The notes: generated by a model from the letters alone, not told the origin. Positions 37,541 to 54,372 are shown, counted from the first letter of the stretch. The stretch is 64,000 bases of DNA from a bacterium (GCA_021463465.1 JAJTYH010000002.1:1347-65346); one strand, 5' to 3'. A program made the numbers and translations.

Positions 37541-37915
37541 TTAAAGTTCAGTTATTGGACTTGTCCCAGGATTCACCGTCAGATTAAGGCTTTTATAATA
37601 ATCTGCATAATCGGCATCTAACAGAATATCCCGATGGATATTATTACTCCCATTTACTGTGACTACATAGGTACAATCTCCATTATTAAATGAAATTGTT
37701 CCACTACCTGTGTAAGTAGTATTCTGAGCTATTTTCCGAAAAGCCTCTTCCTTACAAGAGTAGAGCTGCTGTTCTAAGAAAGTACTGGCAATAAAACCTA
37801 TTGTGGAAATCTTGTAATTAACGCTTAAAATCGAAAGTGCAATTCCTCCAGCCAATGAAATGGCCGTCATAGCAACTACTGTTATTAAGGCTATATTACC
37901 CTTATATTGTTTCAT
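37541..37915 (-). CDS. pilus-associated hypothetical protein with N-terminal TM helix
   Basis: A 124-aa ORF with an N-terminal hydrophobic helix, sitting at the distal end of the pilus operon. Confidence 0.3.
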   Translation of the reverse strand: MKQYKGNIALITVVAMTAISLAGGIALSILSVNYKISTIGFIASTFLEQQLYSCKEEAFRKIAQNTTYTGSGTISFNNGDCTYVVTVNGSNNIHRDILLDADYADYYKSLNLTVNPGTSPITEL

Positions 37916-38397
37916 TTGTCTTGTACTAAGAATTCAAAGGACTCTGTATATCCAACAACATTGCTATGACCTAAGGTAATTGATATCGTAACACCCACGG
38001 TGTTACTGTCGGTGTCCACATGTTTGGTTGCCCTAAACTTCTGAACTACTACCCCATCAGGAGTAAGAGTTATATCAGTTCCACGATTATAAATAATATC
38101 GCCACCACTCCGAGTGTATGAAACATCTCCATTTGAAGTCGTGAATACTACTCTTCCCGAATCACTATCATAGACTGACGAGCCATCATTAAACCCAGTT
38201 ATACTTCGTTCAACCTGCGTAAAGTGTTCCCGTACAAATATTACATTGCGGCTCAACTCAATTCTATTTCGCGCATCCACATTCTTATTCGAAACAAAGA
38301 CAAAAAACTGTACCATTGAAAGAATAATAACTGAAAACAAAGCAAGATATAAAATCAGCTCAACCAAAGTCATTGCCTGATAACGATTATTTCCCAT
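37912..38397 (-). CDS. type IV pilin-like protein (minor pilin/pseudopilin)
   Basis: Prepilin-like N-terminus QAMTLVELILYLALFSVIIL, matching G/A-x-T-L-V-E followed by a hydrophobic helix. Confidence 0.5.
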   Translation of the reverse strand: MGNNRYQAMTLVELILYLALFSVIILSMVQFFVFVSNKNVDARNRIELSRNVIFVREHFTQVERSITGFNDGSSVYDSDSGRVVFTTSNGDVSYTRSGGDIIYNRGTDITLTPDGVVVQKFRATKHVDTDSNTVGVTISITLGHSNVVGYTESFEFLVQDK

Positions 38398-40330
38398 AAT
38401 TTAGCGTCACTGATTTTAGTGTAGGCGTACTTATGCTGTCAGAAGTATAAAAAGCGCGATACTGAAAATACCTATTGTTACTAATTACACTTGGTAAAGC
38501 GCTACCACCTCCACTGGTAAAATATGTTCCCGGAGTGCCATCACTACCTACAAAGGTTCCAGTAAGGTTTGAAGTAGCACCGCTTCTAACTTGAAATCTT
38601 AATGTAGTATTGGCCGGCACTGTACTATCCCAAGAAAGCATATAAAAGTCTGTTAGCGCCGAGTTCGAATCAAAAACAGAAGATGTATAGTTTCCAGATA
38701 CCAAATACCCATATCCTGTTTCTCCTCCTCCTTCACCTGGACCACCACGCAAAATCTGAAAATCGTTGGTATTGTCATTAGTAACAATATACGAAAAAGA
38801 GTTCATATCAACATCTGTCACAGCATCTATATCATTAATCCCTGCATTATATTGCATACCACCACAGCGAGTAGGAGAGGCTTCATTAGTAATATTAAGT
38901 ACTTGATACTCTTCTCCACCTGAACCTACTAAAATTGCTCGGTCATCTGCCTCAACAATTGCAATGCCTTTAATGCTCGTACCGTTTGCTTCGTAACTGC
39001 CAATAATCGGTCTGGCACCCGATTTGCTCGAAGTGTTTATAATGAAAAACTCCCGTTCACTTGAGGAGCTTTCAGTACCAAAGTAAACGCGATTAGTGTC
39101 ATCACTCACATAAAGGTCGTGTGTCTGCTGATTATTAACGGAGGTTTGGGAAGTTATAATCATATCAGCAGGATTGCCAATATTGGTAATTACAAGCTCA
39201 TACCAATCATCATCAAGCGACGCATACATATAGTCACCCTTTATAACGATTTGACTAACACTTGCTGTTTGAAATAGGTTTTGGTTCAAAGAAATCTGCT
39301 CAATCCCAAGTTGCGCCCTTGAACCTGTTTTGGTGGTTAAATTAAAAGTAAAAACATAACGTCCTGCTGCTACATAACCTATATCTCCAACTACATAAAC
39401 TGAATTAGCATCTTCAGTCCTTGAAGTGTTAAAATATCCAACCTCAGTATAAGGGGTACTCGAGATATCTAGTATCACAACCTCTTTATTGTTTTGTGTC
39501 GTTGCTAAATATGCATAGTTACCACTAACAAAGATATTATTAGTAAGGTAGCCGTTGAAGGTACCATCGACGTTAATTGTAGGAGTCTCAACCCCTGAAA
39601 TACTAAGTTTTGTAAAAGCTACACCAGAAGAGTTGCCGCCCGTCCCAAGATAGGTATTACCTGGGAAAGAAAAGAGCGTCTTAGCGGTTGCACTTCCTGG
39701 AATATTGTACTGATTGATTGCCAACTCAGGCTCACACCAGTCAGGATAAAAGACTTGTTTTAAAACCACTTCACCTCCTGCAGTGTTAGTAGCAATAGTT
39801 TGAGCATAAGTTCCGGTATCAAATTCTGCTTGGCTTGTTTGTACCCAGGTCTTGGTACTCCAGTCATTCAGGAAAAGACTTGAAGAGTAAGTTTTTTCAC
39901 GACCTAATTTGTCTTCCCAAACAAAAGAAATCACTACCTCTTTAGTGTGTGGATCAACTGTCCCTGTAGGTACAATGTTGCCACTCCCATCACGTTGAAC
40001 GTTTGAGATAGTAAAGGAGTATGAAATGTCGCCAAAAGAATAGGTGCCGTCTTCAATTGTCACTGTACTACCACTCTGCTCAATGTACATAGGAGTGTTG
40101 GAAGTATTCTGGTCAATCTCCCCCCATGATCTCTCCTTAATTAGCTGTATTTCTTTAAAAATCTTCTCGCGGTATATATCTGCACTTACACGTCTCTGAT
40201 AATCATAAGATGAACTGAACAAATCAATTGAGATTAAAACAATGGGGGAGGCAATAAGTCCAAAAATCCCAATAGCGATAAGCATCTCGACTAAACTGTA
40301 TGCTTTGTATTTGAGTTTAGCGTTGAACAA
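38387..40330 (-). CDS. large type IV pilin-like protein (minor pilin / tip-associated)
   Basis: N-terminus KAYSLVEMLIAIGIFGLI (prepilin-like), then a roughly 600-aa beta-rich, S/T/G/N-rich region. Confidence 0.5.
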   Translation of the reverse strand: MFNAKLKYKAYSLVEMLIAIGIFGLIASPIVLISIDLFSSSYDYQRRVSADIYREKIFKEIQLIKERSWGEIDQNTSNTPMYIEQSGSTVTIEDGTYSFGDISYSFTISNVQRDGSGNIVPTGTVDPHTKEVVISFVWEDKLGREKTYSSSLFLNDWSTKTWVQTSQAEFDTGTYAQTIATNTAGGEVVLKQVFYPDWCEPELAINQYNIPGSATAKTLFSFPGNTYLGTGGNSSGVAFTKLSISGVETPTINVDGTFNGYLTNNIFVSGNYAYLATTQNNKEVVILDISSTPYTEVGYFNTSRTEDANSVYVVGDIGYVAAGRYVFTFNLTTKTGSRAQLGIEQISLNQNLFQTASVSQIVIKGDYMYASLDDDWYELVITNIGNPADMIITSQTSVNNQQTHDLYVSDDTNRVYFGTESSSSEREFFIINTSSKSGARPIIGSYEANGTSIKGIAIVEADDRAILVGSGGEEYQVLNITNEASPTRCGGMQYNAGINDIDAVTDVDMNSFSYIVTNDNTNDFQILRGGPGEGGGETGYGYLVSGNYTSSVFDSNSALTDFYMLSWDSTVPANTTLRFQVRSGATSNLTGTFVGSDGTPGTYFTSGGGSALPSVISNNRYFQYRAFYTSDSISTPTLKSVTLNYGK

Positions 40331-40757
40331 AGACTAAGCCCTCTGAATTTAGTTGAACCACTGAAGTAGAACTTCCAAACACGGCTGTAACTGAACCGCT
40401 GACATTAGGCCTCAAATCATTTTTTTCAAAGTGAATCTCAATCCCACCTCCTAGTGATGCACCTAAAACTACACCTTCGGTCAAAATCTGTTTAGTGGAA
40501 ATGTTTTGTGCATAAGAGTTACCTGTATACATGATGACACGGTCAGATTGGATCAAAAGACCGTATTCTGCATTTTCGTAGCCGTTAAAGGCATTCTGCT
40601 GCTGATTATAGATTGAGGACGCGACTATACTTGCCATTGCCTCTGCTTTTGAAGAGTAGATTTGCGAAATAGTAATCGGAATCAAAAAAGAACCCAACAA
40701 AGTGATAATTGCCACTACGACTATAATTTCAAGCAAAGTAAAGGCACTGTAGCGCAT
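40317..40757 (-). CDS. type IV pilin-like protein (pseudopilin)
   Basis: N-terminus SAFTLLEIIVVVAIITLLG is a canonical class III signal (FTLLE). Confidence 0.6.
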   Translation of the reverse strand: MRYSAFTLLEIIVVVAIITLLGSFLIPITISQIYSSKAEAMASIVASSIYNQQQNAFNGYENAEYGLLIQSDRVIMYTGNSYAQNISTKQILTEGVVLGASLGGGIEIHFEKNDLRPNVSGSVTAVFGSSTSVVQLNSEGLVFVQR

Positions 40758-40759
40758 GG

Positions 40760-41851
40760 TTAGTTAATGCTTCCTATCAACTGATAAATCGGTCCTACAA
40801 TTGTTATTGCCAAAACCCCAATCATCACGGCAACTAGAATCAACATAACTGGTTCAAGTAGTGTTGCTAGATTTTCGGTCAAGTCAGTAACCTCCTCAGT
40901 ATAGTAATCAGCTAAGAAAGCAAGGTTCTCTTCCAGAGTGCCAGTACCTTCAGAAATCTCCAGAATTTTGGTATATGTCTCAGGAAATAATTTGGGGTGC
41001 AGTGCTAATGCCGTAGCCAGGTTTTTACCACCTTTTACATCTTTTCTAACCTCTTCCAAGGCATTTATATACTCCGTGTTATTGACACTTTCTGCTGCAA
41101 CTTTAAGCGATTGCGAGAACGAGGTACCGCTTTCTAGCAAAATTCCCAACGTTCGAGAGAAGTTTGCTAAAAAACGAAAGCGATTTACCTTTCCAAGTAC
41201 AGGAAAGCGAAGTGAAATATAGTCAGAGATACGCCTTCCAATTTTGGTCTTAAGAAAGATATACCCAATCAGTCCAAGTGCCACTACTCCTAGCAAGATA
41301 TATAAACCATTAGTTCTCATGAATGCCGTAGCATCGAGAATCGCCTTAGTAAATGGTGGAATGTTCTTAAATGAGCTAAAAAGTGCTTCCATTCTGGGCA
41401 GAATGAAAAACACCATTCCCAACATTTCAACTCCTGTCAAAGAAAAAATGATAATAGGGTAGGTCATAGCTCCTTTAATCCGCTTATCAAATTCATACTT
41501 CTTTTTCAGATACTCCGCCAAAAAAAGCAGGTTCTTCTCTAATACCGCTGCCTCTTCACCCACAGTAACAAGTGAGACTACCATCTCAGAAAAAATCTTA
41601 GGATATTTAGACATAGATGAAGATAAGTTATTTCCTGCGGCCAAACTCGAATAAATCTCTTCGAAAGCTTTTCGTAAGCGTGCGTCCTCAGACTGTTTAC
41701 CAAGAACTTTAATACTCTCAGAAAGTGATAAACCGGATTTAAGCATCAGTGCAAGATGGCGAATTGCTAGTGCAACATGTAAATCAGACACTTTGCTTAA
41801 GTAGACTTCTGACGTAATACCAGGTTTTTTAACTTCTCTGGGTTTATTCAT
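40760..41851 (-). CDS. pilC: type IV pilus assembly platform protein PilC (GspF family)
   Basis: Two GspF repeats and three transmembrane segments. 363 aa. Confidence 0.85.
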   Translation of the reverse strand: MNKPREVKKPGITSEVYLSKVSDLHVALAIRHLALMLKSGLSLSESIKVLGKQSEDARLRKAFEEIYSSLAAGNNLSSSMSKYPKIFSEMVVSLVTVGEEAAVLEKNLLFLAEYLKKKYEFDKRIKGAMTYPIIIFSLTGVEMLGMVFFILPRMEALFSSFKNIPPFTKAILDATAFMRTNGLYILLGVVALGLIGYIFLKTKIGRRISDYISLRFPVLGKVNRFRFLANFSRTLGILLESGTSFSQSLKVAAESVNNTEYINALEEVRKDVKGGKNLATALALHPKLFPETYTKILEISEGTGTLEENLAFLADYYTEEVTDLTENLATLLEPVMLILVAVMIGVLAITIVGPIYQLIGSIN

Positions 41852-43196
41852 GCAAAGAGGTAACCTTAACTAATTCGTCTAAAGTAATCATTCCAGTTCT
41901 AAGTTTAATCATTCCGTCTTCCATAAGTAGTACTAGACCGTTTTTACGGGCAACAGATAGTAGCTGGTCAGCTGTAACATTCTTTGCAATAACCTCTCGT
42001 ACATCTTTTGTAACTTCAAGTAATTCATACAAGCCAATTCGGCCTTTATAACCTAAGTTGTTACATGCATTGCAACCTACAGAATCGTAGACTGAATCAC
42101 CTACTTTAAGTAATTTAACAATATCTGCCCTAATTTTAGACAGCTCGTCTAAGTCAGCTTTATTAACTTTCCTAGCTTTCTTACATTCCTGGCAAAGTCT
42201 TCTGGCAAGTCGCTGCGCAATCACTAAAGTCAGAGTAGAGGCAGCCAGATAACTCTCAATTCCCATGTCTGTTAAACGAGGAATAGTGGTAACCGCATCG
42301 TTCGTGTGTATTGTCGAAAGCACTAGATGGCCTGTCAAAGCAGCATTAATGGCAATACGTGCTGTCTCAGCATCACGAATCTCACCAATCATCATAATAT
42401 TTGGGTCTTGTCGTAAAAGAGCTCTAAGCCCAGTTGCAAAGGTCAAATCAGTTTTGGTATTCACCTGCACATGATTAACACCCTCAATGTCATACTCCAC
42501 TGGGTCTTCTACCGTAACAATATTCTTCTCACGGGTATTTATCCCCTTAAGTAATGTATAAAGAGTTGTAGTTTTGCCTGACCCAGTTGGACCTGCAGCA
42601 ATAATCATACCGAAAGGTTTCTTCTGATTCTTCTCTACAATCTCCAGGTCTTTGGCTGAAAACCCAAGGTCTGTAAGGGTAAAGTCGCGTCCAGTATCGG
42701 TTAAGAGTCTAAATACGACTTTTTCTCCCTTGGTAACGGGCAAAATGGAGATACGGACATTGAGCTTTGCACCATCAATCTTAAACTCCACACGGCCATC
42801 CTGGGGAATGAAGTGCTCATCTGTTTGCAGTCTCGAGATAACTTTAATCTTAAAAATCAACAGATGTTCCATCTCTTTAGGAATCTCTAACATATCGTGA
42901 AGGGAGCCGTCTATTCTGAAACGAATAATCATTGAAAGCTCACGAGGTTCCATATGAATATCGGAAGCACGATTAAGCAATGCCTCTTTCACTATACCTT
43001 CAAGCAATACCCCTACATCTTCGGAAATGTCATTTTTGAGGCAGAAGTCCACTTCAGGACTGGTTACAAAGCCTTCAGCCAATCGGCGAATATGTTTTAA
43101 TTCTTCTTTAGAGTCAACAGGTAGTGTAGCTTCAGTCTTCGACTCCTCTTTCGAAACCTTCTCCTCTTTTTCCTCCTTTAAATCTATCTTTTTCAT
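41844..43196 (-). CDS. pilB: type IV pilus assembly ATPase PilB (GspE family)
   Basis: Walker A GPTGSGKTTT, Asp/His boxes, and a tetracysteine region (CQEC...CNAC). Confidence 0.9.
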   Translation of the reverse strand: MKKIDLKEEKEEKVSKEESKTEATLPVDSKEELKHIRRLAEGFVTSPEVDFCLKNDISEDVGVLLEGIVKEALLNRASDIHMEPRELSMIIRFRIDGSLHDMLEIPKEMEHLLIFKIKVISRLQTDEHFIPQDGRVEFKIDGAKLNVRISILPVTKGEKVVFRLLTDTGRDFTLTDLGFSAKDLEIVEKNQKKPFGMIIAAGPTGSGKTTTLYTLLKGINTREKNIVTVEDPVEYDIEGVNHVQVNTKTDLTFATGLRALLRQDPNIMMIGEIRDAETARIAINAALTGHLVLSTIHTNDAVTTIPRLTDMGIESYLAASTLTLVIAQRLARRLCQECKKARKVNKADLDELSKIRADIVKLLKVGDSVYDSVGCNACNNLGYKGRIGLYELLEVTKDVREVIAKNVTADQLLSVARKNGLVLLMEDGMIKLRTGMITLDELVKVTSLHE

Positions 43197-43234
43197 TATG
43201 GGCAGTATAAACGAGTAATGCTAAAATATATCAG

Positions 43235-43263
43235 AAAAAAGAAGGGGTGTCATAGGACACCCC
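43235..43263 (-). terminator. Rho-independent terminator/attenuator after pilA
   Basis: On the minus-strand transcript, GGGGUGUC-CUAU-GACACCCC (8-bp GC-rich stem, 4-nt loop) is followed by UUCUUUUUU. It lies between the pilA stop and the pilB start. Confidence 0.55.
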
Positions 43264-43289
43264 TTTCAACTGCAATGAAGTTACTAACT

Positions 43290-43724
43290 TTACTGAGTTA
43301 CTGAAATCACCTTACCGTTTTCTGCGTTAGGTGCATTTACTTGGACACGGTTTGTAGCCGTAGTACAAATTGTATATCCAGTTACAGCATCAGTACCACC
43401 AGTTGGATCAGCAGGAATAGCAGGAATATAATCAGGAACCAAAGTAGTCCCGAGATTCAATCCAGCTGTACCAATAGAAGTTGGAGTCGCAGTACATGCT
43501 GCAATCGTACCAAGACTGGCAACAGTGTTGTTACCTGCAACATACTGGGATACTGCACTAAGTATTGCACTCACTTCAGATGCTCTCTCTGCATTTCGAG
43601 TATCTGCAAAGTTCTTATTTGGGTTAATAGCAACAATCGTTACAGTTGCCAAAATAGCAATCAATGCTACTACTACAAGGATTTCAATAAGGGTAAATCC
43701 TTGGAATTTACTTGCTCGCTTCAT
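43290..43724 (-). CDS. pilA: type IV major pilin
   Basis: MKRASKFQGFTLIEILVVVALIAILA is a canonical prepilin leader plus N-terminal helix. 144 aa, T/A/G-rich globular part. Confidence 0.8.
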   Translation of the reverse strand: MKRASKFQGFTLIEILVVVALIAILATVTIVAINPNKNFADTRNAERASEVSAILSAVSQYVAGNNTVASLGTIAACTATPTSIGTAGLNLGTTLVPDYIPAIPADPTGGTDAVTGYTICTTATNRVQVNAPNAENGKVISVTQ

Positions 43725-44028
43725 AAATTAGACAGTTTATTTTAAATCTTAACCATTCAGTATTGCATAGGCTAAATGTGTAGTCAAGCACAGTACAATA
43801 GTCTAAAGACTGCCATCTTTGCCGTTAGTAATCAATCGATAAGCGAGCCTGTAGAAAGCAAAAAAGGTACAAGAAAAGAATCAGACAGGCATTCCGAAAC
43901 CCCTTGATGTTTACACTGATGAAACTATTGATTAGTTATTGAACGTTGTCGACTTGGAAAATATAACTACAGCGAACCTTTGTCAACATTTAGCCTTGCT
44001 CATGCCTGAATTGAAAGATTGGTTTAAA

Positions 44029-45483
44029 CTAGCTAACCGATAAATTGCCATTACTCAGATTCAAAATCTTATCAATATTCAAATGTTCAACCGAATATAC
44101 ATCGTGGGATATTAACAGTACAGCACCCTTAAACTCATTTAAACACCGTTCAACAACTTCTTTCGTTTCTATATCTAGATGCTGAGCTGGCTCGTCTAAA
44201 ATAAGGAACTGGTACTGATCCCTCTCACTTCTTTCAGAAAAAAGCGAAAATTTAAGTCGTGCCTGTTGCCCTGGTGAGAGTATTTTAACTGGTTTAAGTA
44301 AATCGTCTTGGGTAAACATATACTTTTCTAAAATTTTGGGTAACTGATAATACGAATAATTAGTGTGTTTTTGATAATAATCAATCAGTTTTTCTGTTTC
44401 ATTCATAGGTTTTTGCTTTTGCTCAAAATATCCTACATTTACATTCTCTCCTAAATGAATCTGACCACTGTCAAAAGCTTCTAATCCTAATATACACTTA
44501 ATTAAAGTAGTCTTGCCTTGACCATTGGCACCTAACAACCAAAGTTTTTCATTACCACGTATCTCCAAACTAATATCATCCAACACTACCTTTTCACCAA
44601 ACGACTTCGACAGGTTGCTGACCCTTACCACTAGTTTAGAAGAGTGAACTTCACCTTGAATTGTTAATTGTGCATACTCTTTCTTCACATACTGCTTTAC
44701 TTCACGGTCAGAAACTTCACGTTCAATTCGCTTTTTCGCTGCTTCAGTTGCACTACCACTACGACTACGGATAATCCCAGCCTGTGCTTTAGCCAACAAA
44801 ACTTCTAATCTTTTCTTATGTTCAATAAACCGATTGAATTCTAATTCCTTACGCTCTACCCACCTACTTTTATGTGACAGATAGTCAGTATAATTACCTG
44901 GAAATTGAAGTAATGAAGCTTGATCAAGCTCCCATATTTGGTCGACAGTGCTATTTAACAAATCACGATCATGCGATATAACTAAGATTGCCCCTTTAAA
45001 AGATTTAAAGAAGGTTTTCAACCATGAGATACCTAAAATATCTAAATGGTTGGTAGGTTCATCCATTAGTAGTAGGGTAGGGTTTTCATAAAGTATCGCT
45101 GCCAATTTAAGTCGCATCTTTTCTCCACCTGATAGCGTATTAATTTCCTGATACTGATCTACTAAAAAGCCAAGCTGTCCTAGCACTTTCTCAACCGTCC
45201 AAATATCCCCATTCTTCTTACAGATATCTTCAATATACTCCCCAACCAACATTCCTTCGTTAAAATCAAACTCCTGGTCTAAATAACCGATACGTTCACC
45301 ATCTAGCAAGAGTTTTCCCGAAGTAGGACTATGCTGTCCCATAATGATTTTGAATAGTGTGGACTTCCCTGTACCGTTACGACCAATCAAGCCTATCTTT
45401 TCGCCATTTTTGATAGCAAAGTTCACCTCTTTAAACAAGGTGTGATTGTTAAAAGTTTGTGTCAAACCAATACCCTTAATCAT
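44029..45483 (-). CDS. ABC-F family ATPase (two tandem ABC domains, no TMD)
   Basis: Walker A GRNGTGKST and GANGQGKTT, with signatures LSGGEKMRL and LSPGQQARL. Confidence 0.8.
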   Translation of the reverse strand: MIKGIGLTQTFNNHTLFKEVNFAIKNGEKIGLIGRNGTGKSTLFKIIMGQHSPTSGKLLLDGERIGYLDQEFDFNEGMLVGEYIEDICKKNGDIWTVEKVLGQLGFLVDQYQEINTLSGGEKMRLKLAAILYENPTLLLMDEPTNHLDILGISWLKTFFKSFKGAILVISHDRDLLNSTVDQIWELDQASLLQFPGNYTDYLSHKSRWVERKELEFNRFIEHKKRLEVLLAKAQAGIIRSRSGSATEAAKKRIEREVSDREVKQYVKKEYAQLTIQGEVHSSKLVVRVSNLSKSFGEKVVLDDISLEIRGNEKLWLLGANGQGKTTLIKCILGLEAFDSGQIHLGENVNVGYFEQKQKPMNETEKLIDYYQKHTNYSYYQLPKILEKYMFTQDDLLKPVKILSPGQQARLKFSLFSERSERDQYQFLILDEPAQHLDIETKEVVERCLNEFKGAVLLISHDVYSVEHLNIDKILNLSNGNLSVS

Positions 45484-45522
45484 AAGGTTGATTTTAACAT
45501 GTTACACTAGTGGAGTAGAGGA

Positions 45523-46047
45523 CTAACGCTTTTTGGAAGCATTTCTTTCGAGTTCTTCTTCGTATCTGTCTTTCACTTTTAAGTACAAACCTAGAGAAAG
45601 TAGTAAGTAACAGAGAATCATAATCTGAAACCAGAGAAAACTTCCATAATCCACTTTTTGGAATGCGACTATATAAAGAGGTGAGGCGATAACATTTATC
45701 AATAAAGCAAAGGAATTAATTCTTAGAAACCTCTTTATTGCTTCAAACCCTAACACTCTTCTTATTACTGGCTCAGGCTTGGTATGCAAAATTACATCGT
45801 ATGCCTTACTCTCTTTATTTCCCCCAATTCCAATTTTTTTGAAAGCACTATTTGCTGACCAATCGAGGAAAAGGCCCGTAAAATAAAGAAAAGGAACAAC
45901 CAATATAAACAACAGGGGCGATCGAATCAAAAGCAAGTTATAAAACTTGTGGCCTTCGCAATAAAAAATCAGTGTTACAAGTGGGATACTCCATGCGCTC
46001 AGTCCTCCAATTATATATTCAATCATCATTGTAATCACAAAGTTCAT
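45523..46047 (-). CDS. hypothetical polytopic membrane protein
   Basis: A 174-aa ORF with 4-5 predicted transmembrane helices. Last gene of the kinase-containing operon. Confidence 0.4.
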   Translation of the reverse strand: MNFVITMMIEYIIGGLSAWSIPLVTLIFYCEGHKFYNLLLIRSPLLFILVVPFLYFTGLFLDWSANSAFKKIGIGGNKESKAYDVILHTKPEPVIRRVLGFEAIKRFLRINSFALLINVIASPLYIVAFQKVDYGSFLWFQIMILCYLLLSLGLYLKVKDRYEEELERNASKKR

Positions 46048-46067
46048 ATCCTTAAATAAGGTATTTA

Positions 46068-46754
46068 TTACTGCTCAAAAACAACTGATTCTACTTTTGC
46101 ACCTAGTTTTTTCACAATATCAATCAACTCGTGCTTCATTGCTTTGGGACCACAAATATAAAAGTTTGTATTAAAGTCACCTACATTCTTCATCAAGAAA
46201 CTTTCATTAATCCTCCCATATTCTAAAGTGTTTTTTTGTTCACGTGTCAATGTAAAAATAAGATCTTGTGGATTACGATCAAATATCTCAATTAGTTCTT
46301 CCCTAATTATTATGTCTTCCTCGGTTTTGTTAGAGTAAAAAAGCTTATTACCTTCAATTTCGTTCTTGCTTTTTAATTCTCTTAAGATAGCTATAAACGG
46401 TGTTATTCCAGCGCCTCCAGCGATAAAAATACCTTTTCCTTGATAATTGATTGTCCCCCAAGGTTCACCAATTAGAAGTTCGTCACCCTCATTTAGCGTA
46501 TATAGCTTTTCAGTCATTCCAGAATGATTAGGAAATTCAGAAACATTATAGCTTTTGATTGTAAATTCAAGATGATTGTCAGAGTTCAGGCATGTGAATG
46601 TAAATGGGTGTAGGTTTTCAACCCATCCTGACTGGTTTATTGCAACATCTGTAGCTTGACCTGGCGTGAATTTATACCCGTTTGGTTTTTCCGTGATATA
46701 TCTACGTACATCGTGTGTAATATTCTCAATTTTTATAATTTTAACTTTATCCAT
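46068..46754 (-). CDS. ferredoxin-NADP reductase-like FAD/NAD(P)-binding oxidoreductase
   Basis: An FAD-binding barrel with HPFTFT (RxYS-like), an NAD site IAGGAGITPFIAIL, and C-terminal YICGP. 228 aa, no Fe-S or transmembrane domain. Confidence 0.6.
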   Translation of the reverse strand: MDKVKIIKIENITHDVRRYITEKPNGYKFTPGQATDVAINQSGWVENLHPFTFTCLNSDNHLEFTIKSYNVSEFPNHSGMTEKLYTLNEGDELLIGEPWGTINYQGKGIFIAGGAGITPFIAILRELKSKNEIEGNKLFYSNKTEEDIIIREELIEIFDRNPQDLIFTLTREQKNTLEYGRINESFLMKNVGDFNTNFYICGPKAMKHELIDIVKKLGAKVESVVFEQ

Positions 46755-46770
46755 CTAAACTTTTATCAAT

Positions 46771-48045
46771 TTATTTGCCTCTAACTATATCACTTACTTC
46801 TTTTACAATCTTTGATGCACTATCAAAGTTGCCTTCTGATATTTTACCTTTGTGGAAGATTTCAAAAAAGAATTCATCTAACTTCTTAAGCGTAATTGAA
46901 TCTAAATTTGGATTGTATCTTCCAACTTTTCTCAAACTATCAGATCTATACATTGGGATTTTTGCAGTCTTATCTAATTCCTTTGATGAATGAGGAGACA
47001 CACCAGTGAAAGAGTAGTAAACAGTGGCAGCAAAGCTATACAAATCATCAAATTTAGTAGGAGAATTACCTAGTAGAATACTAGGTGACATATATTCAAA
47101 CGAAGAAACCGCGGCGGCTTCTTCAGGAGTTGTACTCTTAACTAGATCGACTGACTTAACAGATTCCATATCAATCATCTTTACTAAAGGTCTTGTATGT
47201 ACATCTTTTACATATTCTAACTGCCAATTACCTTTGCCACTGCTTGGAACAACAAATTGGCCGGGCTTAATATCTCTATGAACGGCATTGTTTGCGTGGA
47301 TATGATCAACAGCATTTGCACAATCACTTAACATCACTAAACGTGGTTCACTTTCTAAAAGAGTAACATCGATTCCTTCAAGAGAAGGTCCAGAAACATA
47401 TTCCATGACTAAAACTGGATGAAAAGCATCCCGAGAATTCGTTCCGTTACTCTCTTCTTTTCGAAGGAAAGTAGAATCATATATTTTAACAATGTTTGGA
47501 TGGTCAGGTACAGTATTAAAACCGAGCATTTCTTGCGTACTTTTAACAAATGCAGCATCAATCCCTTCAAAACTTGAATCAAATACTTTTATAGCAACTG
47601 GCCTTTCTAAACGTTCATCTTCTGCTAGCCAAACCTCTCCATAGCCTCCGTACTTACCTCCGCTTAAAAATCCAACGACATGGTATCTGCCGTCATTTTG
47701 TACTTCAAACGCTCGAAAGCTTCCAGTTGAACCCATCTTTACTATCGCAAAATCATGCTGTAAAACTTTAATCACATCATCGATATGCGGAAGCTTATCT
47801 TGTTCTAAGACTAACTGTTCACCAATTGTTGATACTTTGTCTCCCTCTTTAACTCCAATGGATGAGAATGAATCCGGTGCATTTATTTGAATATTCGGAG
47901 ATAGAACAACCTTACCATCTGAGAGTGGAGGACCAAGATTTGCCTTAAATTCTTTAACAGGAAACTCCATAACTATTGGCTCAAGGTTATCTGTTTTTGG
48001 ATTTCTTATTTGTCCGATTGTAGTTTTAAAGGTACCATCACCCAT
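46771..48045 (-). CDS. Hanks-type Ser/Thr protein kinase-like protein with degenerate DFG/APE motifs
   Basis: Gly-rich loop GGKYGGYGEVW, VAIKVF (beta3 Lys), HRDIKPGQ (catalytic loop, N replaced by Q), KMIDME in place of DFG, and YMSPS in place of APE. A roughly 130-aa N-terminal extension of unknown fold. Confidence 0.6.
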   Translation of the reverse strand: MGDGTFKTTIGQIRNPKTDNLEPIVMEFPVKEFKANLGPPLSDGKVVLSPNIQINAPDSFSSIGVKEGDKVSTIGEQLVLEQDKLPHIDDVIKVLQHDFAIVKMGSTGSFRAFEVQNDGRYHVVGFLSGGKYGGYGEVWLAEDERLERPVAIKVFDSSFEGIDAAFVKSTQEMLGFNTVPDHPNIVKIYDSTFLRKEESNGTNSRDAFHPVLVMEYVSGPSLEGIDVTLLESEPRLVMLSDCANAVDHIHANNAVHRDIKPGQFVVPSSGKGNWQLEYVKDVHTRPLVKMIDMESVKSVDLVKSTTPEEAAAVSSFEYMSPSILLGNSPTKFDDLYSFAATVYYSFTGVSPHSSKELDKTAKIPMYRSDSLRKVGRYNPNLDSITLKKLDEFFFEIFHKGKISEGNFDSASKIVKEVSDIVRGK

Positions 48046-48089
48046 ACATGAGTATATTCATATCTTTAGAAGTAAATCAAACGAGATGG

Positions 48090-49862
48090 CTATAATTGGG
48101 ATTCAGCAAGCAAACGATAAGTAACAGCCTGTACAAACAAATATAAGTCATATTTAGAGGCTTTGGAAAGGTTTTCTAGAAATCGATTCAAATCAGGATG
48201 TGCTTGAGTCATAGTCGCAATAGCCTGCATATAACCTTTTTGTGACTTTATACTAGCAAGTAACCTGCGAGCGTAAGTAAGGTTTTCCTCTAAATTTGGA
48301 ATCGTTTCCCAATGATTGATATTGCCATTACTAAGATCTAATACGAAGTCTATTTTTTTCAATGGCTTCGAATCATTTGTTTTTGACCTATAAGAAACAA
48401 TAAACTGAGTTTTCTGATCACTAAAAGATGAGAAGCCTGTGAGATTAAAAGGGGTTTTACGTCTTAATTCAACTGAATCAGGAATATCAGTAGAAGGTGG
48501 TAAATCCAGAGCTTTTATATTGGTGATTCGTACTACAAAATCATTAGGTGAACGTGAATAGTCTTGGTTAGGAATGTTTATGATAATTTGAATATTGCCA
48601 TCTGCACTTACGAATTTCTTAATTAAACACGCTTTCCCCATTAAATTGTCTGGTGAATCAGCTATTTCAACCTCAAAATCACCTAGATTTACGGTCCCAC
48701 TTTCATACCATTCACCATTAAGCAGTTTAAGTACATCTTCATTATCCGAGACGCTTTCTAGTGATTCAACTCCTACGATGTTTAACTGAGAACTAAAAAG
48801 TAAACTAAGATATTTCGCAATTTCATTTTTAGTTTGGTCAGGGATGAACTTGGCATTTTTTTCACTTTCATAAAATATTCTTTTTAATGGTTTTTTATCT
48901 GTTTTCACGACTGCTTGAGGGATGAGTTTAATCGGTTTAACTAAGCCACTAAACTCAGCAATAAGGTCGGGAAGGGGAGTAGGGTGCTCTGGTGCAGGCT
49001 GACGGGTAATTGTATAGTTGATTGCAGATTGGTCTGAAAGCTCTTGGCTTAAATAATCAGTCAGGGTAGAAACAAATGCAATATTACATTGTGATAAATC
49101 TTTTTTTCTTAAATCTCGATGTTCCTTAAGAAATTTCACCAAATCTAACTGTTTTAAGTCAAAGTCTAAATTATATTTTTCAGCTAAAATAATACCATCA
49201 AGGATTCTATTTAATATATGGATTTCCGGACTTTGTTCATTCAGAGCTTTGGTTCTAGCTGTAATCTTTTCAATCAAATCATACACTGATACATCATCAT
49301 CTTGGCTCCGATCACTCTCGGTTAATATATTTACCACATCATCCGAGATTTCAATTTCATCAATTAATCCAGGAGTTAATCCTTTAGAGCCGTTATTCTT
49401 AATGAGTGTATCTTTACTACTAATTTGGAGGCTCTCCAAATATTCTCGTTCAAAAGTATCCCTTACATGCCTATACGCAACAATTTCATCTGCTGTTAAA
49501 GGTATGCTCTCAAAATCATTTAACTCGTAGTTAAAGTCAGTCAAAGTGTTATCTAACTCAGTACCTTTCAATGGAACCTGACCTGCCTCAATCTTTTTCT
49601 TTTTAACATCTTCCTTCATTGTTCCTATAAGTTGGAGATACGATGCAAGTGCAGAACCCCTTTGGTCCTGATTTAAATTTTCTGAGCTATAAATCAGTTC
49701 CGAGTTTAAATCCTTTAGCTCAGGGTAAAAAGATACACATTGAGACCTCAGGGCAAGAAGTGTTTCCTTTTCAAACGGGTGTAATTCAAATCGAACAGGT
49801 TGCGTTTTGACATCCTCAGTTGCAGCGATTTCGACTGAAATTTGTTTCCCATCTCTTAACAT
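48090..49862 (-). CDS. large hypothetical cytoplasmic protein (590 aa)
   Basis: No transmembrane segment and no motif I recognise. Acidic, D/E/L/N-rich. Confidence 0.4.
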   Translation of the reverse strand: MLRDGKQISVEIAATEDVKTQPVRFELHPFEKETLLALRSQCVSFYPELKDLNSELIYSSENLNQDQRGSALASYLQLIGTMKEDVKKKKIEAGQVPLKGTELDNTLTDFNYELNDFESIPLTADEIVAYRHVRDTFEREYLESLQISSKDTLIKNNGSKGLTPGLIDEIEISDDVVNILTESDRSQDDDVSVYDLIEKITARTKALNEQSPEIHILNRILDGIILAEKYNLDFDLKQLDLVKFLKEHRDLRKKDLSQCNIAFVSTLTDYLSQELSDQSAINYTITRQPAPEHPTPLPDLIAEFSGLVKPIKLIPQAVVKTDKKPLKRIFYESEKNAKFIPDQTKNEIAKYLSLLFSSQLNIVGVESLESVSDNEDVLKLLNGEWYESGTVNLGDFEVEIADSPDNLMGKACLIKKFVSADGNIQIIINIPNQDYSRSPNDFVVRITNIKALDLPPSTDIPDSVELRRKTPFNLTGFSSFSDQKTQFIVSYRSKTNDSKPLKKIDFVLDLSNGNINHWETIPNLEENLTYARRLLASIKSQKGYMQAIATMTQAHPDLNRFLENLSKASKYDLYLFVQAVTYRLLAESQL

Positions 49863-49892
49863 TTCTTAAAGTTTGACAGGTTATTAATTAGT

Positions 49893-50552
49893 TTAAAGCC
49901 ATTTATTTAAATTTAGGGTGCTTTGGCCACTTTCATCTGTAACCATAGGCTGTTCTTTAGCCCAGTTTAAGAGATTCACTCTTTTGACTAAATTTGTCCA
50001 TTGACCATTTTCTCCAATAATCATTGAGTAGTCATCCGTTCCAAGGTTCTTAGCTAACACTTTAGATTTCATATTGGGATTTTTTGACTGCAACAACATC
50101 AATGCTATATACGCCATTTTTTTGTCAAAAGGATCGGAACTATCTGTGTAATCTCTATAAAGACATACTGTTATTTGACCATAGCCAGGTTCCATATCAA
50201 AACCACTTAAATCAGCCAAAATTACTTCACAAATATGTGGGTCAGTTAGTGGTTTAGAATCAGGCCCTCTTTTGTTATCAATTACACGTGCAAAAGAGTT
50301 AGAAATACCATCTGAAATCAACTCAACATTGTAAGGTGAATTTGAAAGTTCAAAGTCGGCCATAAAATATCCCACATCTGGCCCAATTGTTGGACATGCC
50401 ATTGTCTGAAATTGATATTGCCGTTGATTAACTGCTTCGTCTATGCCAATACCGGATAAATATTGCTCACTTTTTCCTCTAATGTATTTCACTTTTGCCT
50501 CACCCACAGTCATAGGAAGCTTATCCCTTACTGCTGTTTGTCTAGTAAACAT
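49893..50552 (-). CDS. hypothetical protein (219 aa)
   Basis: No recognisable motif. First gene of the operon. Confidence 0.4.
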   Translation of the reverse strand: MFTRQTAVRDKLPMTVGEAKVKYIRGKSEQYLSGIGIDEAVNQRQYQFQTMACPTIGPDVGYFMADFELSNSPYNVELISDGISNSFARVIDNKRGPDSKPLTDPHICEVILADLSGFDMEPGYGQITVCLYRDYTDSSDPFDKKMAYIALMLLQSKNPNMKSKVLAKNLGTDDYSMIIGENGQWTNLVKRVNLLNWAKEQPMVTDESGQSTLNLNKWL

Positions 50553-50665
50553 ATTTATAAGTATTGACTTAATAGAAAATTAAATCATAACTCCATATGT
50601 TTTACAATTATGATTAAGAGCGAACCGAAGTATTGTCAAGGATAATTGAATCAAAAAGGTTGATG

Positions 50666-53266
50666 CTATTCTTCTTTTTTCTCTTTTATATACTTGTATG
50701 TCCCAGCAATGAGTAATAAGAAAAGAATAATAAGCCACCAAAACTCAAATACATTTGCTCTTATTTGCTTTTCAAGCTCTTTATCCTGTTGTGTATTCTC
50801 AGTTTGAGAGGGTGTAGAAGGCGCAGTTGGAGTTGAGATAGGGGATTCAACCTCATTTTCATCGCCATCATCACTTTTTTCTTCGGTATTGTTTATATCA
50901 TTTGAAGCAGTGTAAACAACATCTGGTTCAGATTCACTATTACTATTACTATTACTATTACCATTTCCCTCATTTTCTTCTTCGTTTTCATCGTCTACAG
51001 GCGGTTCTTGAACTGTTGTTACTCCAAGCACACCCTCCGCAGATGTATCTGAAACTTTGTAATAATCGGTACCGGAAATATTAACAACACTTAAACCGAA
51101 ATCTCCTTCGTTCAATGGGATGTTTCCAGTACAGTCACTAGTAATTTCCGATAAGGAATCAACCTCAGGACATATAACCACCCCAGTATTACCAGTCTTT
51201 TTTACAACATAAAGATCGTATACTTCAGATACACCTGGTGCATCAGAAGGGTTGAGACCTTGAATCATTGTTTTTGATTCTGAAGGTAAGGAAATGGGGT
51301 TAACTTCACTCCAATCTCTGTCATCTGATAAATCTACATCAAAATCAGCTACAAGATAGTCACCAAAACTCATCTTAGATTGAATCGAATCAAGACCAGG
51401 AGTAGAAGGATCATAAAATTTAGTGACTAAACTTTCCTCTGTATCAACATTTACGACATCTGAACTAGGTGTTAGATTAAGTATTCTCACGCCCTCAGCA
51501 ATCATATGCACTCTACTACTATTATCATCAGCAACAAGTAAGAAATTTCCAATTGGGTGATATGTAATACCAGAGGGGTTATTAAACTGTGTAATTCCAG
51601 TTCCAAAATCTCCGAATGATTCTATAAAATTCCCTGTACTATCATATTTATGAACTTTATTGCCAAACATATCGACGACAAAAAAGTTGCCGTCAATATC
51701 TTGCGTTATACCACCTAATCTTACTGAACGATTTGTACTACCAGAATCAAAATCTTCAATATATACACCTGTTGAACTAAACTTTTGAATTCTTCCAGTT
51801 TCTGCTCCATCAACTCCTTCATAGTTATCAACCACATAAATATTATCAGCTCCATCTACATATATACTCTCAGGAATCATGAACTCACCATTTCCAGTTC
51901 CTAGTTGACCAAATTGTGAAATATAATTACCGCTTGAATCAAATATCTGCACTCGAGCATTAAAATAATCTGATACAACGATGTTACCATTAGATAATAT
52001 TCCTAGCCCTCGAGCTTCGGCAAACTCTCCATTACCTGTACCACTTGCCCCAAATGAAAAATCTAACGTACCGTCGGAATTAAAAACTTTAACACCACTT
52101 ATGTGACTGATGTAAATCTTATCGGCGTCATCAACTTTCATATGGTAAGCCGCGATTTCTCCAATATCAGAAAAATCTAGAAGTGTGCTTACATAAACTC
52201 CACTTGAGTTATACTTGTTAACTTCGGGTGCAAAAGGTCCATTATAAAGGACTAGGATATCTCCGTTGCTATCTACAGCAACACTAGTAGGAATTGTTAA
52301 CAACCCGTTCTCTGTTCCACTATTTCGATACCCCCATTGAAAGATGCCTAGTGAGTTGAATTTCAAAATTGAATTTAGATTCCAATCAGAAACGTAAATA
52401 TTGTCATCATCGTCAACAGTTAAATACTGTGGAGCCATAAATTCATCTTCACCTGTACCATTTGTACCAAACGAAGAAATCCAAGTTCCATCACTTTCAA
52501 ATCTATGAATTTTAGGGTCATTTTGATCAGTAACTAATAGCTGGCCATTACTAAGTATGGCAATATCTTTTACAGCATTAAAATTACTACCAGAAGCAGT
52601 AGCATCAAAATTAAACATGAAAACCCCGTTTGAATCAAAAACCACAACTCTATGGTTCGAACCATCAGTAACGTAAACATTTCCAGTAGAATCAGTTGTC
52701 AAACCTCCAGGCTCATTTAATTCTCCATTTCCACTTCCAAATGTCCCAAAAGAAGAGATATAAGTACCATCTTTTTCGAAATGTTGAACATTATGCTTGT
52801 TATAATTCGAGATAAAAATTGTATCACTAAACGAGTCCCATACAATCCCTTTTGGGGTGGTAAACTTTTCCTCTTCGGCTCCACAATCACCCCAAGATGA
52901 TAGGTAACCACCGTTTGAGTCTAATATATATACTTTGCAGTCTGATAACACATACAACTTTCCACTACTATCAACTGTCAGACCGATAATTTGACTAGCA
53001 AATTCGCCTTCATTACTCCCACTTCTTCCAACTGTCCTTAGAATCTCTTTAGATTGGTTGATTTTAACCAATCTATTACCAGCATAATCCACATACCAAA
53101 TATTTCCATCGGGAAGAACCGTCAAATCAAAAGGAACCCCAATATTTGTATAAGAGTTGGGAATATTTTGATACGTGTTATAACCAGCGAATGACGTTGA
53201 AACAAGTGTTAGGAATAAAAAGATTGTCCAAAATGTTATTTTTTTAATCACTCCTGATACTACCAA
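50666..53266 (-). CDS. secreted NHL-repeat (beta-propeller) surface protein with C-terminal TM anchor
   Basis: Signal peptide, then at least 12 NHL-like repeats (YVTDxxNHRVxxFDxxG), an acidic (NS)n/E-rich linker, and a C-terminal transmembrane helix plus KEKKEE tail. Confidence 0.7.
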   Translation of the reverse strand: MVVSGVIKKITFWTIFLFLTLVSTSFAGYNTYQNIPNSYTNIGVPFDLTVLPDGNIWYVDYAGNRLVKINQSKEILRTVGRSGSNEGEFASQIIGLTVDSSGKLYVLSDCKVYILDSNGGYLSSWGDCGAEEEKFTTPKGIVWDSFSDTIFISNYNKHNVQHFEKDGTYISSFGTFGSGNGELNEPGGLTTDSTGNVYVTDGSNHRVVVFDSNGVFMFNFDATASGSNFNAVKDIAILSNGQLLVTDQNDPKIHRFESDGTWISSFGTNGTGEDEFMAPQYLTVDDDDNIYVSDWNLNSILKFNSLGIFQWGYRNSGTENGLLTIPTSVAVDSNGDILVLYNGPFAPEVNKYNSSGVYVSTLLDFSDIGEIAAYHMKVDDADKIYISHISGVKVFNSDGTLDFSFGASGTGNGEFAEARGLGILSNGNIVVSDYFNARVQIFDSSGNYISQFGQLGTGNGEFMIPESIYVDGADNIYVVDNYEGVDGAETGRIQKFSSTGVYIEDFDSGSTNRSVRLGGITQDIDGNFFVVDMFGNKVHKYDSTGNFIESFGDFGTGITQFNNPSGITYHPIGNFLLVADDNSSRVHMIAEGVRILNLTPSSDVVNVDTEESLVTKFYDPSTPGLDSIQSKMSFGDYLVADFDVDLSDDRDWSEVNPISLPSESKTMIQGLNPSDAPGVSEVYDLYVVKKTGNTGVVICPEVDSLSEITSDCTGNIPLNEGDFGLSVVNISGTDYYKVSDTSAEGVLGVTTVQEPPVDDENEEENEGNGNSNSNSNSESEPDVVYTASNDINNTEEKSDDGDENEVESPISTPTAPSTPSQTENTQQDKELEKQIRANVFEFWWLIILFLLLIAGTYKYIKEKKEE
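50936..50965. repeat. hexanucleotide tandem repeat (ACTATT)x4 plus one degenerate unit, inside the NHL gene
   Basis: Direct reading of the sequence. On the coding (minus) strand it encodes NSNSNSNS. Confidence 0.7.
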
Positions 53267-53409
53267 AATTATTTAAAAACATCTAATGGCTAGAGTTATT
53301 TTTTATAGGGACAAAGCTTTCGCAGCTTTGCTTAAAAAAGTAAGTCAATCCTATATCTTGTGATATAATAGCCATTTGTAATTTCACACTATGTCTAATC
53401 TTAAAAAGC

Positions 53410-54372
53410 ATGGATGGACCATTTGACAGTATTTTAATAGGAGACTCAATCTATATTGTTGGCCATAAACATCCAGACGTTGATTCAATCGTCTCTGCAT
53501 TTGCATATCAAATATATAGGCACTCAAAAGGAGATTTTAACTATAAAGCAATTAGGTGCGATGAAACAAATGACCTAACCAAATGGCTTTTTAAAAAGTT
53601 TAATACAGAAATCCCTCCATTGATTACTAATATTTCGAATCAACAAGTTGTACTTGTTGATCATACGGATCCGCAACAACGGGCAGATGGTTGGGAATCA
53701 GCAGATATAATTGAAGTCTTAGATCATCACAAACTTAATCTTGAAACTAGTATCCCACCTAAAATCACTATACGTCCTTATGGTTCAACTTCAACATTAA
53801 TTGCACAAAAGTTTCTCGAAACAAGTACAAATATCAAAATGGAGTTGGCTGGACTTATGCTCGGTGCAATTCTTGATGACACCCTCGCACTTAGATCTCC
53901 GATTACTACCGAGACCGATAAAGTATGCGCAGGGAAACTAAGTTCAATTTCAGGTCTAAATGATGTATCAAGCTTTGCAAGAGAGCTATTTTCGGAAAAA
54001 GATAAATGGAAGAAAATGAAGGCCGAGGATATTATTGATTCGGATACAAAATCTTATCTTATTAATGGCGTTTCAGTACAAATTTCACAGGTTGAGACAA
54101 TGGATAATCAACTTTTAGCCAATTCAAAAGGCGAGAAAATTCACGAGATTCTTGAACTTCAAAACAATAAAGATAAAAAGGATTTACGCATTGTGATGCT
54201 AACAGACTTAATACGCAATGATTGCATACTCTATGCAGTAGGGGAAAAGAAGGAATTAATCGAAAAGATTTTCAATGTTAAGCCCAGTAATGAAATGTAT
54301 TTTATTCTTCCTGGTGTTTTATCAAGAAAAAGGCAAGTCGAGGCTCCACTTATACAATATTTATCAAAGTAA
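53410..54372 (+). CDS. ppaC: family II (DHH/DHHA2) manganese-dependent inorganic pyrophosphatase
   Basis: HKHPDVDS, VLVDHTD, DHHK and GAILDDT motifs. 320 aa. Confidence 0.8.
   Translation: MDGPFDSILIGDSIYIVGHKHPDVDSIVSAFAYQIYRHSKGDFNYKAIRCDETNDLTKWLFKKFNTEIPPLITNISNQQVVLVDHTDPQQRADGWESADIIEVLDHHKLNLETSIPPKITIRPYGSTSTLIAQKFLETSTNIKMELAGLMLGAILDDTLALRSPITTETDKVCAGKLSSISGLNDVSSFARELFSEKDKWKKMKAEDIIDSDTKSYLINGVSVQISQVETMDNQLLANSKGEKIHEILELQNNKDKKDLRIVMLTDLIRNDCILYAVGEKKELIEKIFNVKPSNEMYFILPGVLSRKRQVEAPLIQYLSK

Follow-up and report, generated by a model that had tools for sequence, protein, structure and literature searches.

Do five closely spaced genes on one strand of a bacterial chromosome make up a dedicated multi-component system, or do they only share a transcript? 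The question was raised by positions 45,523 to 50,552 of a 64,000-nucleotide stretch of bacterial DNA (GCA_021463465.1, JAJTYH010000002.1:1347-65346), which is called the window here and from whose first letter all positions are counted. The original prediction, made from the sequence alone, described this region as a minus-strand operon for two hypothetical proteins of 219 and 590 aa, an atypical Hanks-type kinase of 424 aa, an FNR-type flavoprotein of 228 aa and a polytopic membrane protein of 174 aa, and proposed a redox-signalling unit or a defence system. We consider it probable, at roughly 60%, that these five genes (the quintet) and the adjacent ABC-F ATPase gene are functionally unlinked, forming a lineage-specific string that is probably co-transcribed, and are not a dedicated multi-component system. 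The six genes would then be a packing unit in the core chromosome. The string would join a widespread stand-alone flavin reductase, a strongly diverged soluble kinase, three species-restricted proteins and a housekeeping ABC-F. A novel five-gene system was not supported beyond adjacency, which carries little information in this genome.

The ORF listing gave five minus-strand open reading frames (ORFs) with exactly the coordinates and lengths that had been predicted. They are the 219-aa ORF (49893-50552), the 590-aa ORF (48090-49862), the 424-aa kinase ORF (46771-48045), the 228-aa FNR flavoprotein ORF (46068-46754) and the 174-aa membrane-protein ORF (45523-46047). Their lengths are beyond chance in AT-rich DNA, and seven near-identical strain contigs carry all of them intact. 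The GC content of the window is about 35-40%, and the GC content, the GC content at third codon positions (GC3) and the synonymous codon usage of all five genes were within 2 standard deviations of the window mean. Because they are long, have native codon usage and are intact in strains, the ORFs look like real genes. The descriptions of the products also stood. The kinase, the flavoprotein and the membrane protein were as characterized, and the two hypothetical proteins had no recognizable motif, as detailed below. The five proteins had no paralogues within the window, and no domain was common to any two of them.

From the 219-aa gene onward, the gaps within the quintet are 30, 44, 16 and 20 bp, followed by 39 bp to the 484-aa ABC-F ATPase gene (44029-45483, minus strand). 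The original prediction inferred an operon from these short gaps, which are no special signal in the window. Of its 35 co-directional adjacent gene pairs, 20 were separated by at most 50 bp, and the median gap was 39 bp. Tight spacing is thus the packing style of the genome and no mark of a module. The minus strand carries all of the genes between 37541 and 53266.

The suggestion that the operon extends into the ABC-F gene fared better. A promoter-like site (TTGACA, an 18-nt spacer and AATCAT; 50610-50639, minus strand) matched the consensus at 10 of 12 positions. It lies in the 113 bp between the 219-aa ORF and the upstream 866-aa NHL-repeat gene, and was the joint-best sigma-70-like match in a scan of 43000-54000, where 37 promoter-like sites were found in total and 39.5 were expected from shuffling. 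The site is a candidate start of the transcription unit. Between the 219-aa gene and ABC-F, consensus scans found a terminator-like hairpin in none of the gaps, and no strong promoter-like site in the last of them, the 39-bp gap before ABC-F. Because a promoter-like site precedes the 219-aa ORF and the gaps contain no terminator-like site, one transcript from the 219-aa gene through ABC-F is plausible, and the ABC-F gene is probably its last gene. A 304-bp gap separates ABC-F from the downstream pilin gene.

Mixed-function operons occur in compact genomes, and a transcript in common with a housekeeping ABC-F fits such an operon. Small gene-dense genomes also carry many species-restricted hypothetical genes packed beside conserved ones. 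The host appears to be a small, gene-dense, low-GC bacterium and would be a member of the candidate phyla radiation (CPR)/Patescibacteria. The quintet is a case in which the tight spacing of small gene-dense genomes cannot be read as functional linkage, and it has little significance as it stands.

Two further observations concern expression of the string. No Shine-Dalgarno (SD)-like purine-rich motif was present within 45 nt upstream of eight start codons (43290-53311, minus strand). The lack of an SD-like motif before any start codon of the string suggests that translation initiation in this organism is SD-independent. An Rfam scan detected just three tRNAs in the window, none of them close to the quintet, and no regulatory RNA near the quintet.

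Conservation of the gene order was assessed within and beyond the species. Seven strain contigs encode the 219-aa protein. Their identity to the window is 99.6-99.96% and their gene order is unchanged, indicating that they represent one species. Synonymous and non-synonymous strain differences numbered 0 and 2 in the 219-aa gene, 0 and 2 in the 590-aa gene and 0 and 1 in the kinase gene, which is too few for dN/dS.

Beyond the species, the neighbourhood of the quintet was not conserved at any of the loci that could be compared, an outcome that the original prediction had named as refuting the system. At 18 loci encoding FNR relatives, the flanks were inspected to a distance of at most 8 kb either way, depending on the length of the contig, and no homologue of the kinase, the 590-aa protein, the 219-aa protein or the membrane protein was found. 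The only relative of the 590-aa protein, P0123, is encoded at a locus where the other quintet genes are absent. They were also absent from the neighbourhoods of three kinase relatives of about 30% identity, the top match included; these neighbourhoods contained FHA/PilZ genes, an ECF sigma factor gene or an FGE-sulfatase gene. Co-conservation fails at every locus where relatives exist to compare.

Several points weigh against reading the quintet as a string of unlinked genes. The missing co-conservation is weak evidence here, because the 219-aa protein, the membrane protein and, apart from the distant relative P0123, the 590-aa protein have essentially no detectable orthologues, and those of the kinase are only about 30% identical. 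The comparison set contained no genome of a sister species or sister genus. A scan of JGI metagenomes with ABC-F gave one relative of 72% identity, and its contig begins inside the ABC-F gene and includes no upstream side. With so few detectable orthologues, a young lineage-specific system would therefore look identical. In addition, co-transcription was deduced from spacing and consensus scans alone, and the structural models of both hypothetical proteins, with confidence scores of about 34, are no real test of remote structural homology.

A young lineage-restricted signalling module might look as follows. The re-wired kinase and the two lineage-unique proteins would control or answer a flavin reductase of the NADPH oxidase (NOX) type and its partner with four transmembrane (TM) segments, and the C-terminal domain of the 590-aa protein would be a new regulatory fold. 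We regard such a module as quite improbable. If it were true, it would be a kinase-flavoprotein coupling not described so far. In the literature library searched, no paper combined Hanks-type kinase, ferredoxin-NADP and operon, and none cited the assembly accession.

The 228-aa flavoprotein scored above the cut-offs of four FAD/NAD domain profiles, namely NAD_binding_1 (60 bits, cut-off 22), FAD_binding_8 (27.4 bits, cut-off 22), NAD_binding_6 (25.4 bits, cut-off 22.2) and FAD_binding_6 (22.8 bits, cut-off 21.1). Its cofactor motifs are intact: H49-P-F-T for FAD, G113-G-A-G-I-T-P119 for the nicotinamide nucleotide, and C201-G-P203. Among PDB sequences, it matched cytochrome b5 reductase (E 3.6e-12) and, over its full length, 8qq1 and 8qq5 (E 1.9e-10), which are the dehydrogenase (DH) domain of the Streptococcus pneumoniae NADPH oxidase, SpNOX (PMC11031084). 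The NCBI name of the protein is 'flavodoxin reductase'. All of its 24 NCBIfam matches fell far short of their cut-offs and gave no equivalog, the best being BenC with 63 bits against 430. Judged by these domains and motifs, the protein is a stand-alone FNR-superfamily dehydrogenase module of the NOX/ferric-reductase type. Acting alone, it would use NAD(P)H to reduce flavins, quinones or small acceptors.

The 18 FNR relatives (loci L008-L025) were 48-66% identical to the window protein and form a compact family of about 225 aa. In 11 family members, F51, T52, G114, G116, T118, P119 and C201-G-P203 were invariant and G113 and A115 were nearly so; the core PFTFT of the [R/H]PFTFT motif and the Phe after P119 in GGAGITPF were invariant or nearly so. 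The family occurred patchily, in 18 genomes from unrelated phyla, with hosts among Saccharibacteria, WWE3, Woesearchaeota, Pseudomonadales, Bacteroidales, Ignavibacteria and Melioribacter. The neighbours of its genes varied by genome and included VTT/DedA, an RND pump, MsrB, SOD, cupin, NpmA, photolyase, pterin dehydratase, a response regulator, a hemerythrin-PAS-DUF1858 protein and NnrS/COX1-like proteins. The neighbourhoods have a mild flavour of oxidative and nitric oxide (NO) stress, often with such genes as those for SOD, MsrB, the hemerythrin-PAS-DUF1858 protein or NnrS/COX1-like proteins adjoining, and no constant partner. The family looks like a horizontally mobile, stress-related reductase without an assigned enzyme name.

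The window FNR shares the two-domain FAD/NAD(P)H architecture of E. coli Fre, the SpNOX DH domain and cytochrome b5 reductase. It carries the [R/H]PFT, GGxGxxP and CGP motifs, and about 225 aa is a Fre-like size. It differs from these proteins in belonging to its own conserved clade of about 225-aa proteins, in reaching no equivalog cut-off and in having no adjoining partner of the ferric reductase domain (FRD) or MsrQ type. A NOX-type flavin reductase family of this size that occurs in distant bacterial and archaeal phyla, and for which no enzyme assignment was found, is of modest value in itself.

The adjoining membrane-protein gene raised the question whether the flavoprotein delivers electrons to its product. 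The 174-aa protein is basic (pI 9.4) and has four TM segments predicted by a hydropathy scan, near residues 12-30, 38-56, 110-128 and 132-150. It belonged to no Pfam, PADLOC or PHROGs family and had no PDB match; one stray NCBIfam match had an E value of 0.033. A scan of JGI metagenomes gave no relative, and none was found outside the species. The stop codon of the gene is polymorphic. The window has TAG (45523-45525, minus strand), and one strain contig has TGG and encodes a protein of 181 aa (L003, 7187-7732).

In a split NOX-like or Fre-MsrQ-like pair, the FNR would bind to the 174-aa protein and deliver electrons to the other side of the membrane. The FNR has the features for such a role, as it matches the ferric-reductase-type domains FAD_binding_8 and NAD_binding_6, matches the SpNOX DH domain over its full length and has the HPFT motif. 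Prokaryotes widely encode the FRD and the DH as separate proteins, MsrQ and Fre being examples (PMC11031084), and the membrane-protein gene lies 20 bp after the FNR gene. The membrane protein does not have the features of the other half. It matched neither Ferric_reduct nor any other Pfam domain, and it has four predicted TM helices, whereas an FRD has six and paired intramembrane His residues. Its only two His residues are H33, just past the first TM segment, and H88, in the long loop that joins segments two and three. Because both are outside the predicted TM segments, the protein could not supply the paired intramembrane haem ligands of an FRD. Moreover, the small membrane proteins encoded next to some FNR relatives were unrelated to the 174-aa protein and to one another, and they occurred at about the frequency of random neighbours. 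We consider a split pair very improbable.

The 424-aa protein matched the Pkinase model PF00069 with 68.1 bits (cut-off 31.7; E 1e-18) over residues 133-367. The kinase domain spans about residues 119-390. The N-terminal part, from residue 1 to about 115, is of no recognized type and gave no Pfam match and no PDB sequence match. The best PDB matches were Mycobacterium tuberculosis PknB and PknA (E about 2e-16). Sequence relatives were distant; among the matches listed from a database of 5.8 billion clusters, identity was at most 32% and typically about 30%, and the best non-self match was 30% identical.

The residues of the kinase were surveyed in an alignment with 119 database homologues and PknB. 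The Gly-rich loop (G133-G-Y-G-E-V138) is intact, and so is V150-A-I-K153, whose Lys was present in all 119 aligned homologues. The catalytic loop reads H256-R-D-I-K-P-G-Q263. It keeps HRD and the Lys, but the Mg-binding Asn of HRDxKxxN, present in 119 of 119 homologues, is replaced by Gln263. The position that aligns to the DFG of PknB reads D292-M-E, so that Asp is kept, Phe is changed to Met and Gly to Glu. The Glu of APE, found in all 79 homologues aligned there, is replaced in S320-P-S322. The kinase thus lost three nearly invariant residues, the catalytic-loop Asn (now Gln263), the DFG Gly (now Glu) and the APE Glu (now Ser322). It kept Lys153, which anchors ATP, Asp258, the catalytic base, and Asp292 of DFG. 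Either of two descriptions may apply to it: a soluble kinase whose metal binding and activation-segment geometry are unusual, or a scaffold of weak activity. Compared with PknB, it also has a 16-residue insertion between the catalytic loop and the DFG-equivalent position (PSSGKGNWQLEYVKDVHTRP region, residues 264-290).

The kinase domain aligned with PknB/PknA over about 260 residues (PDB 1o6y, E 2.4e-16), and the Gly-rich loop, Lys153 of VAIK, HRD and the DFG Asp are common to them. Unlike PknB and PknA, the window kinase has no TM segment, as judged by the hydropathy scan, and no PASTA or other sensor domain. Further differences are its unique N-terminal region of about 115 aa, Gln263, DME, Ser322 and the insertion. 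Its combination of kept residues (Lys, HRD and the DFG Asp) and lost ones (the Asn, the DFG Gly and the APE Glu) makes it a natural test case for residue dispensability in bacterial kinases, and this is of modest value.

With both proteins characterized, the proposed redox-sensing or redox-regulated unit could be weighed. In such a unit, the kinase would receive information on NAD(P)H or oxidants from the flavoprotein, or would itself regulate the flavoprotein through phosphorylation; the membrane protein would be an anchor or electron acceptor, and the hypothetical proteins would be substrates or adaptors. The 16-bp gap between the kinase and FNR genes and the 20-bp gap between the FNR and membrane-protein genes, with no terminator-like site in either, are consistent with it, but spacing this tight is the norm of the genome. 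FNR relatives are often encoded near oxidative- or NO-stress genes, one of them beside a response regulator and another beside a hemerythrin-PAS protein. However, none of the 18 FNR relatives had a kinase neighbour, and none of the three kinase relatives had an FNR neighbour. The unusual catalytic residues of the kinase could reflect a specialized role, yet no redox-sensing domain (PAS, GAF, rubredoxin or thioredoxin) was recognized in it, and it has a single Cys. A redox unit is therefore unlikely in our view. For redox signalling and defence alike, the step beyond adjacency that the original prediction took was not supported, the partners being absent at the loci of relatives.

A role in defence was weighed as well. 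The kinase domain resembles those of PD-T4-6, MAD6 of MADS and PglW of BREX, whose PADLOC or NCBIfam profiles it matched. In PADLOC, it matched PD-T4-6 with 93.6 bits (4e-27) and mad6 with 91 bits (1.9e-26), and the ABC-F protein matched mad3 (4e-45). The other four quintet genes gave no PADLOC match under E 0.03. The kinase scored 90 bits against the housekeeping PknB model, and only 55 bits against NF047741 MAD6 (cut-off 460) and 23.6 bits against PglW (cut-off 990). Because the PADLOC scores are about equal to that of the PknB model, they indicate generic kinase-domain similarity. The mad3 match comes from a bona fide ABC-F that passes NF000355.

These results bear on an anti-phage defence or accessory island built on a kinase, of the PD-T4-6, Stk2, MADS or BREX-PglW type, in which the hypothetical proteins would be sensor and effector. 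Two adjacent ORFans (ORFs restricted to one species) would fit the fast evolution that defence genes typically show. All strain differences in the genes for the 219-aa protein, the 590-aa protein and the kinase were non-synonymous (2, 2 and 1 against 0), in counts too small to carry weight. The window kinase, however, scored no better to PD-T4-6, MAD6 and PglW than to PknB, and the partner genes of these systems were not found; Pfam, NCBIfam and PADLOC detected no methyltransferase, nuclease, PglX/PglZ or other partner in the quintet. The composition of the five genes is native, and their flanks had no repeats, integrase or adjacent tRNA. The quintet was present in every strain contig that reaches the site. 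The site itself is core chromosome, with a type IV pilus cluster on one side and an NHL-repeat surface protein on the other; DnaE, UvrC, UvrB, MutL and iPGM are all encoded in the window. Together these results make a defence island highly unlikely.

A phage or mobile origin of the quintet was also considered and rejected. A generic kinase match was the only PHROGs match of the quintet, repeats and tRNA were missing from the flanks, and IMG/VR contained no relatives of the 219-aa, 590-aa and kinase proteins.

The two proteins at the head of the string are soluble and acidic, with a pI of 5.1 for the 219-aa protein and 5.0 for the 590-aa protein. Neither had a Pfam or NCBIfam match at E <= 0.1, a PHROGs match or a significant PDB sequence match, which bears out the statement that no motif could be assigned to them. 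Stray PADLOC matches were obtained for the 219-aa protein (PbeC, E 0.043) and the 590-aa protein (one match, E 0.033). A search of 5.8 billion clusters with the 219-aa protein returned its own cluster alone. For the 590-aa protein, a word-index search returned only itself, and an exhaustive HMMER search of 1.84 billion (1.84e9) representatives returned itself and the 777-aa protein P0123 (E 1.6e-12).

P0123 was 27% identical to the 590-aa protein, over residues 341-589 only. The C-terminal part of the 590-aa protein, about 250 aa (window 48090-49112), can be described as a domain with one other member, P0123 (Logan SRR32414321; L026, 8141-10474). The gene for P0123 has a divergent rsmD-thrS-infC-rplT-pheST string on one side, and so translation genes as neighbours, and a convergent gene on the other. 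P0123 had no Pfam domain, and a two-sequence profile of it and the 590-aa protein found nothing among PDB sequences (best E 0.088). Two candidate relatives were rejected. The extra N-terminal residues of P0123, about 190 in number, were not a fused homologue of the 219-aa protein (best E 1.6). Uncharacterized proteins of 615-648 aa encoded beside FNR relatives in two WWE3 genomes were not related to the 590-aa protein, as phmmer gave nothing at E <= 1; they carry TM segments.

Both hypothetical proteins were modeled using AlphaFold2 from single sequences, as there were no homologues for an alignment. The mean predicted local distance difference test (pLDDT) values were 34.7 for the 590-aa protein and 34.2 for the 219-aa protein, and both models were unusable. 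Because of these values, a fold comparison would be meaningless. In its low-confidence model, the 590-aa protein has a helical N-terminal part of about 340 aa, followed by a C-terminal part of about 250 aa that is beta-rich and then helical. The 219-aa, 590-aa and four-TM proteins are probably fast-evolving and restricted to the species or genus, with roles that would not be readable from sequence.

The protein encoded at the other end of the string scored 383.3 bits against NF000355 (cut-off 380). It has two ABC_tran domains, and the linker model ABC_tran_Xtn matched weakly (17.6 bits, under the cut-off of 25.9). Two ABC domains, an NF000355 score above the cut-off and a sub-threshold linker match are its points of likeness to EttA, Uup and ARE-type ABC-F proteins. 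Against the models of CplR, Vga and EttA its scores were 279-280 bits, and it barely passed the cut-off of 'ribosomal protection-like ABC-F'. Whatever its place in the ABC-F family, the protein was outside the quintet as originally drawn. It appears to be a housekeeping-type translation factor that probably just shares the transcript.

The surroundings of the string brought up a last alternative. Directly downstream, and likewise on the minus strand, is a type IV pilus cluster (37541-43724). It encodes a pilin with an N_methyl domain (43290-43724), PilB/T2SSE (41844-43196), PilC/T2SSF (40760-41851) and a 647-aa pseudopilin with N_methyl and LVIVD-repeat domains (38387-40330), all on the minus strand. 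Upstream of the 219-aa ORF, the 866-aa NHL-repeat beta-propeller protein is encoded on the same strand (50666-53266). The quintet could thus be a host-interaction locus of an episymbiont, with the ORFans, possibly joined by the kinase, supplying effectors or surface factors that would act with the type IV pilus and an NHL-repeat adhesin. Its position between the NHL-repeat gene and a complete pilin/PilB/PilC cluster on one strand, and the restriction of the ORFans to one species, are in line with this idea. Against it, a hydropathy scan, made with no dedicated signal-peptide predictor, detected neither a hydrophobic N terminus nor a TM segment in the 219-aa protein, the 590-aa protein or the kinase. 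Pfam, NCBIfam and PADLOC detected no secretion-associated domain. We consider a host-interaction locus improbable, and functionally unlinked genes remain the preferred explanation of the string.

Both terminal segments of the NHL-repeat protein are hydrophobic, and its tail is acidic and rich in Asn and Ser. Its gene is the most strain-variable one nearby; comparison of the strain contigs gave 14 synonymous differences, 6 non-synonymous ones and 6 indel columns. Divergent from it lies a gene for a DHH/DHHA2 protein (53410-54372, plus strand), a candidate family II pyrophosphatase or nanoRNase-like enzyme.

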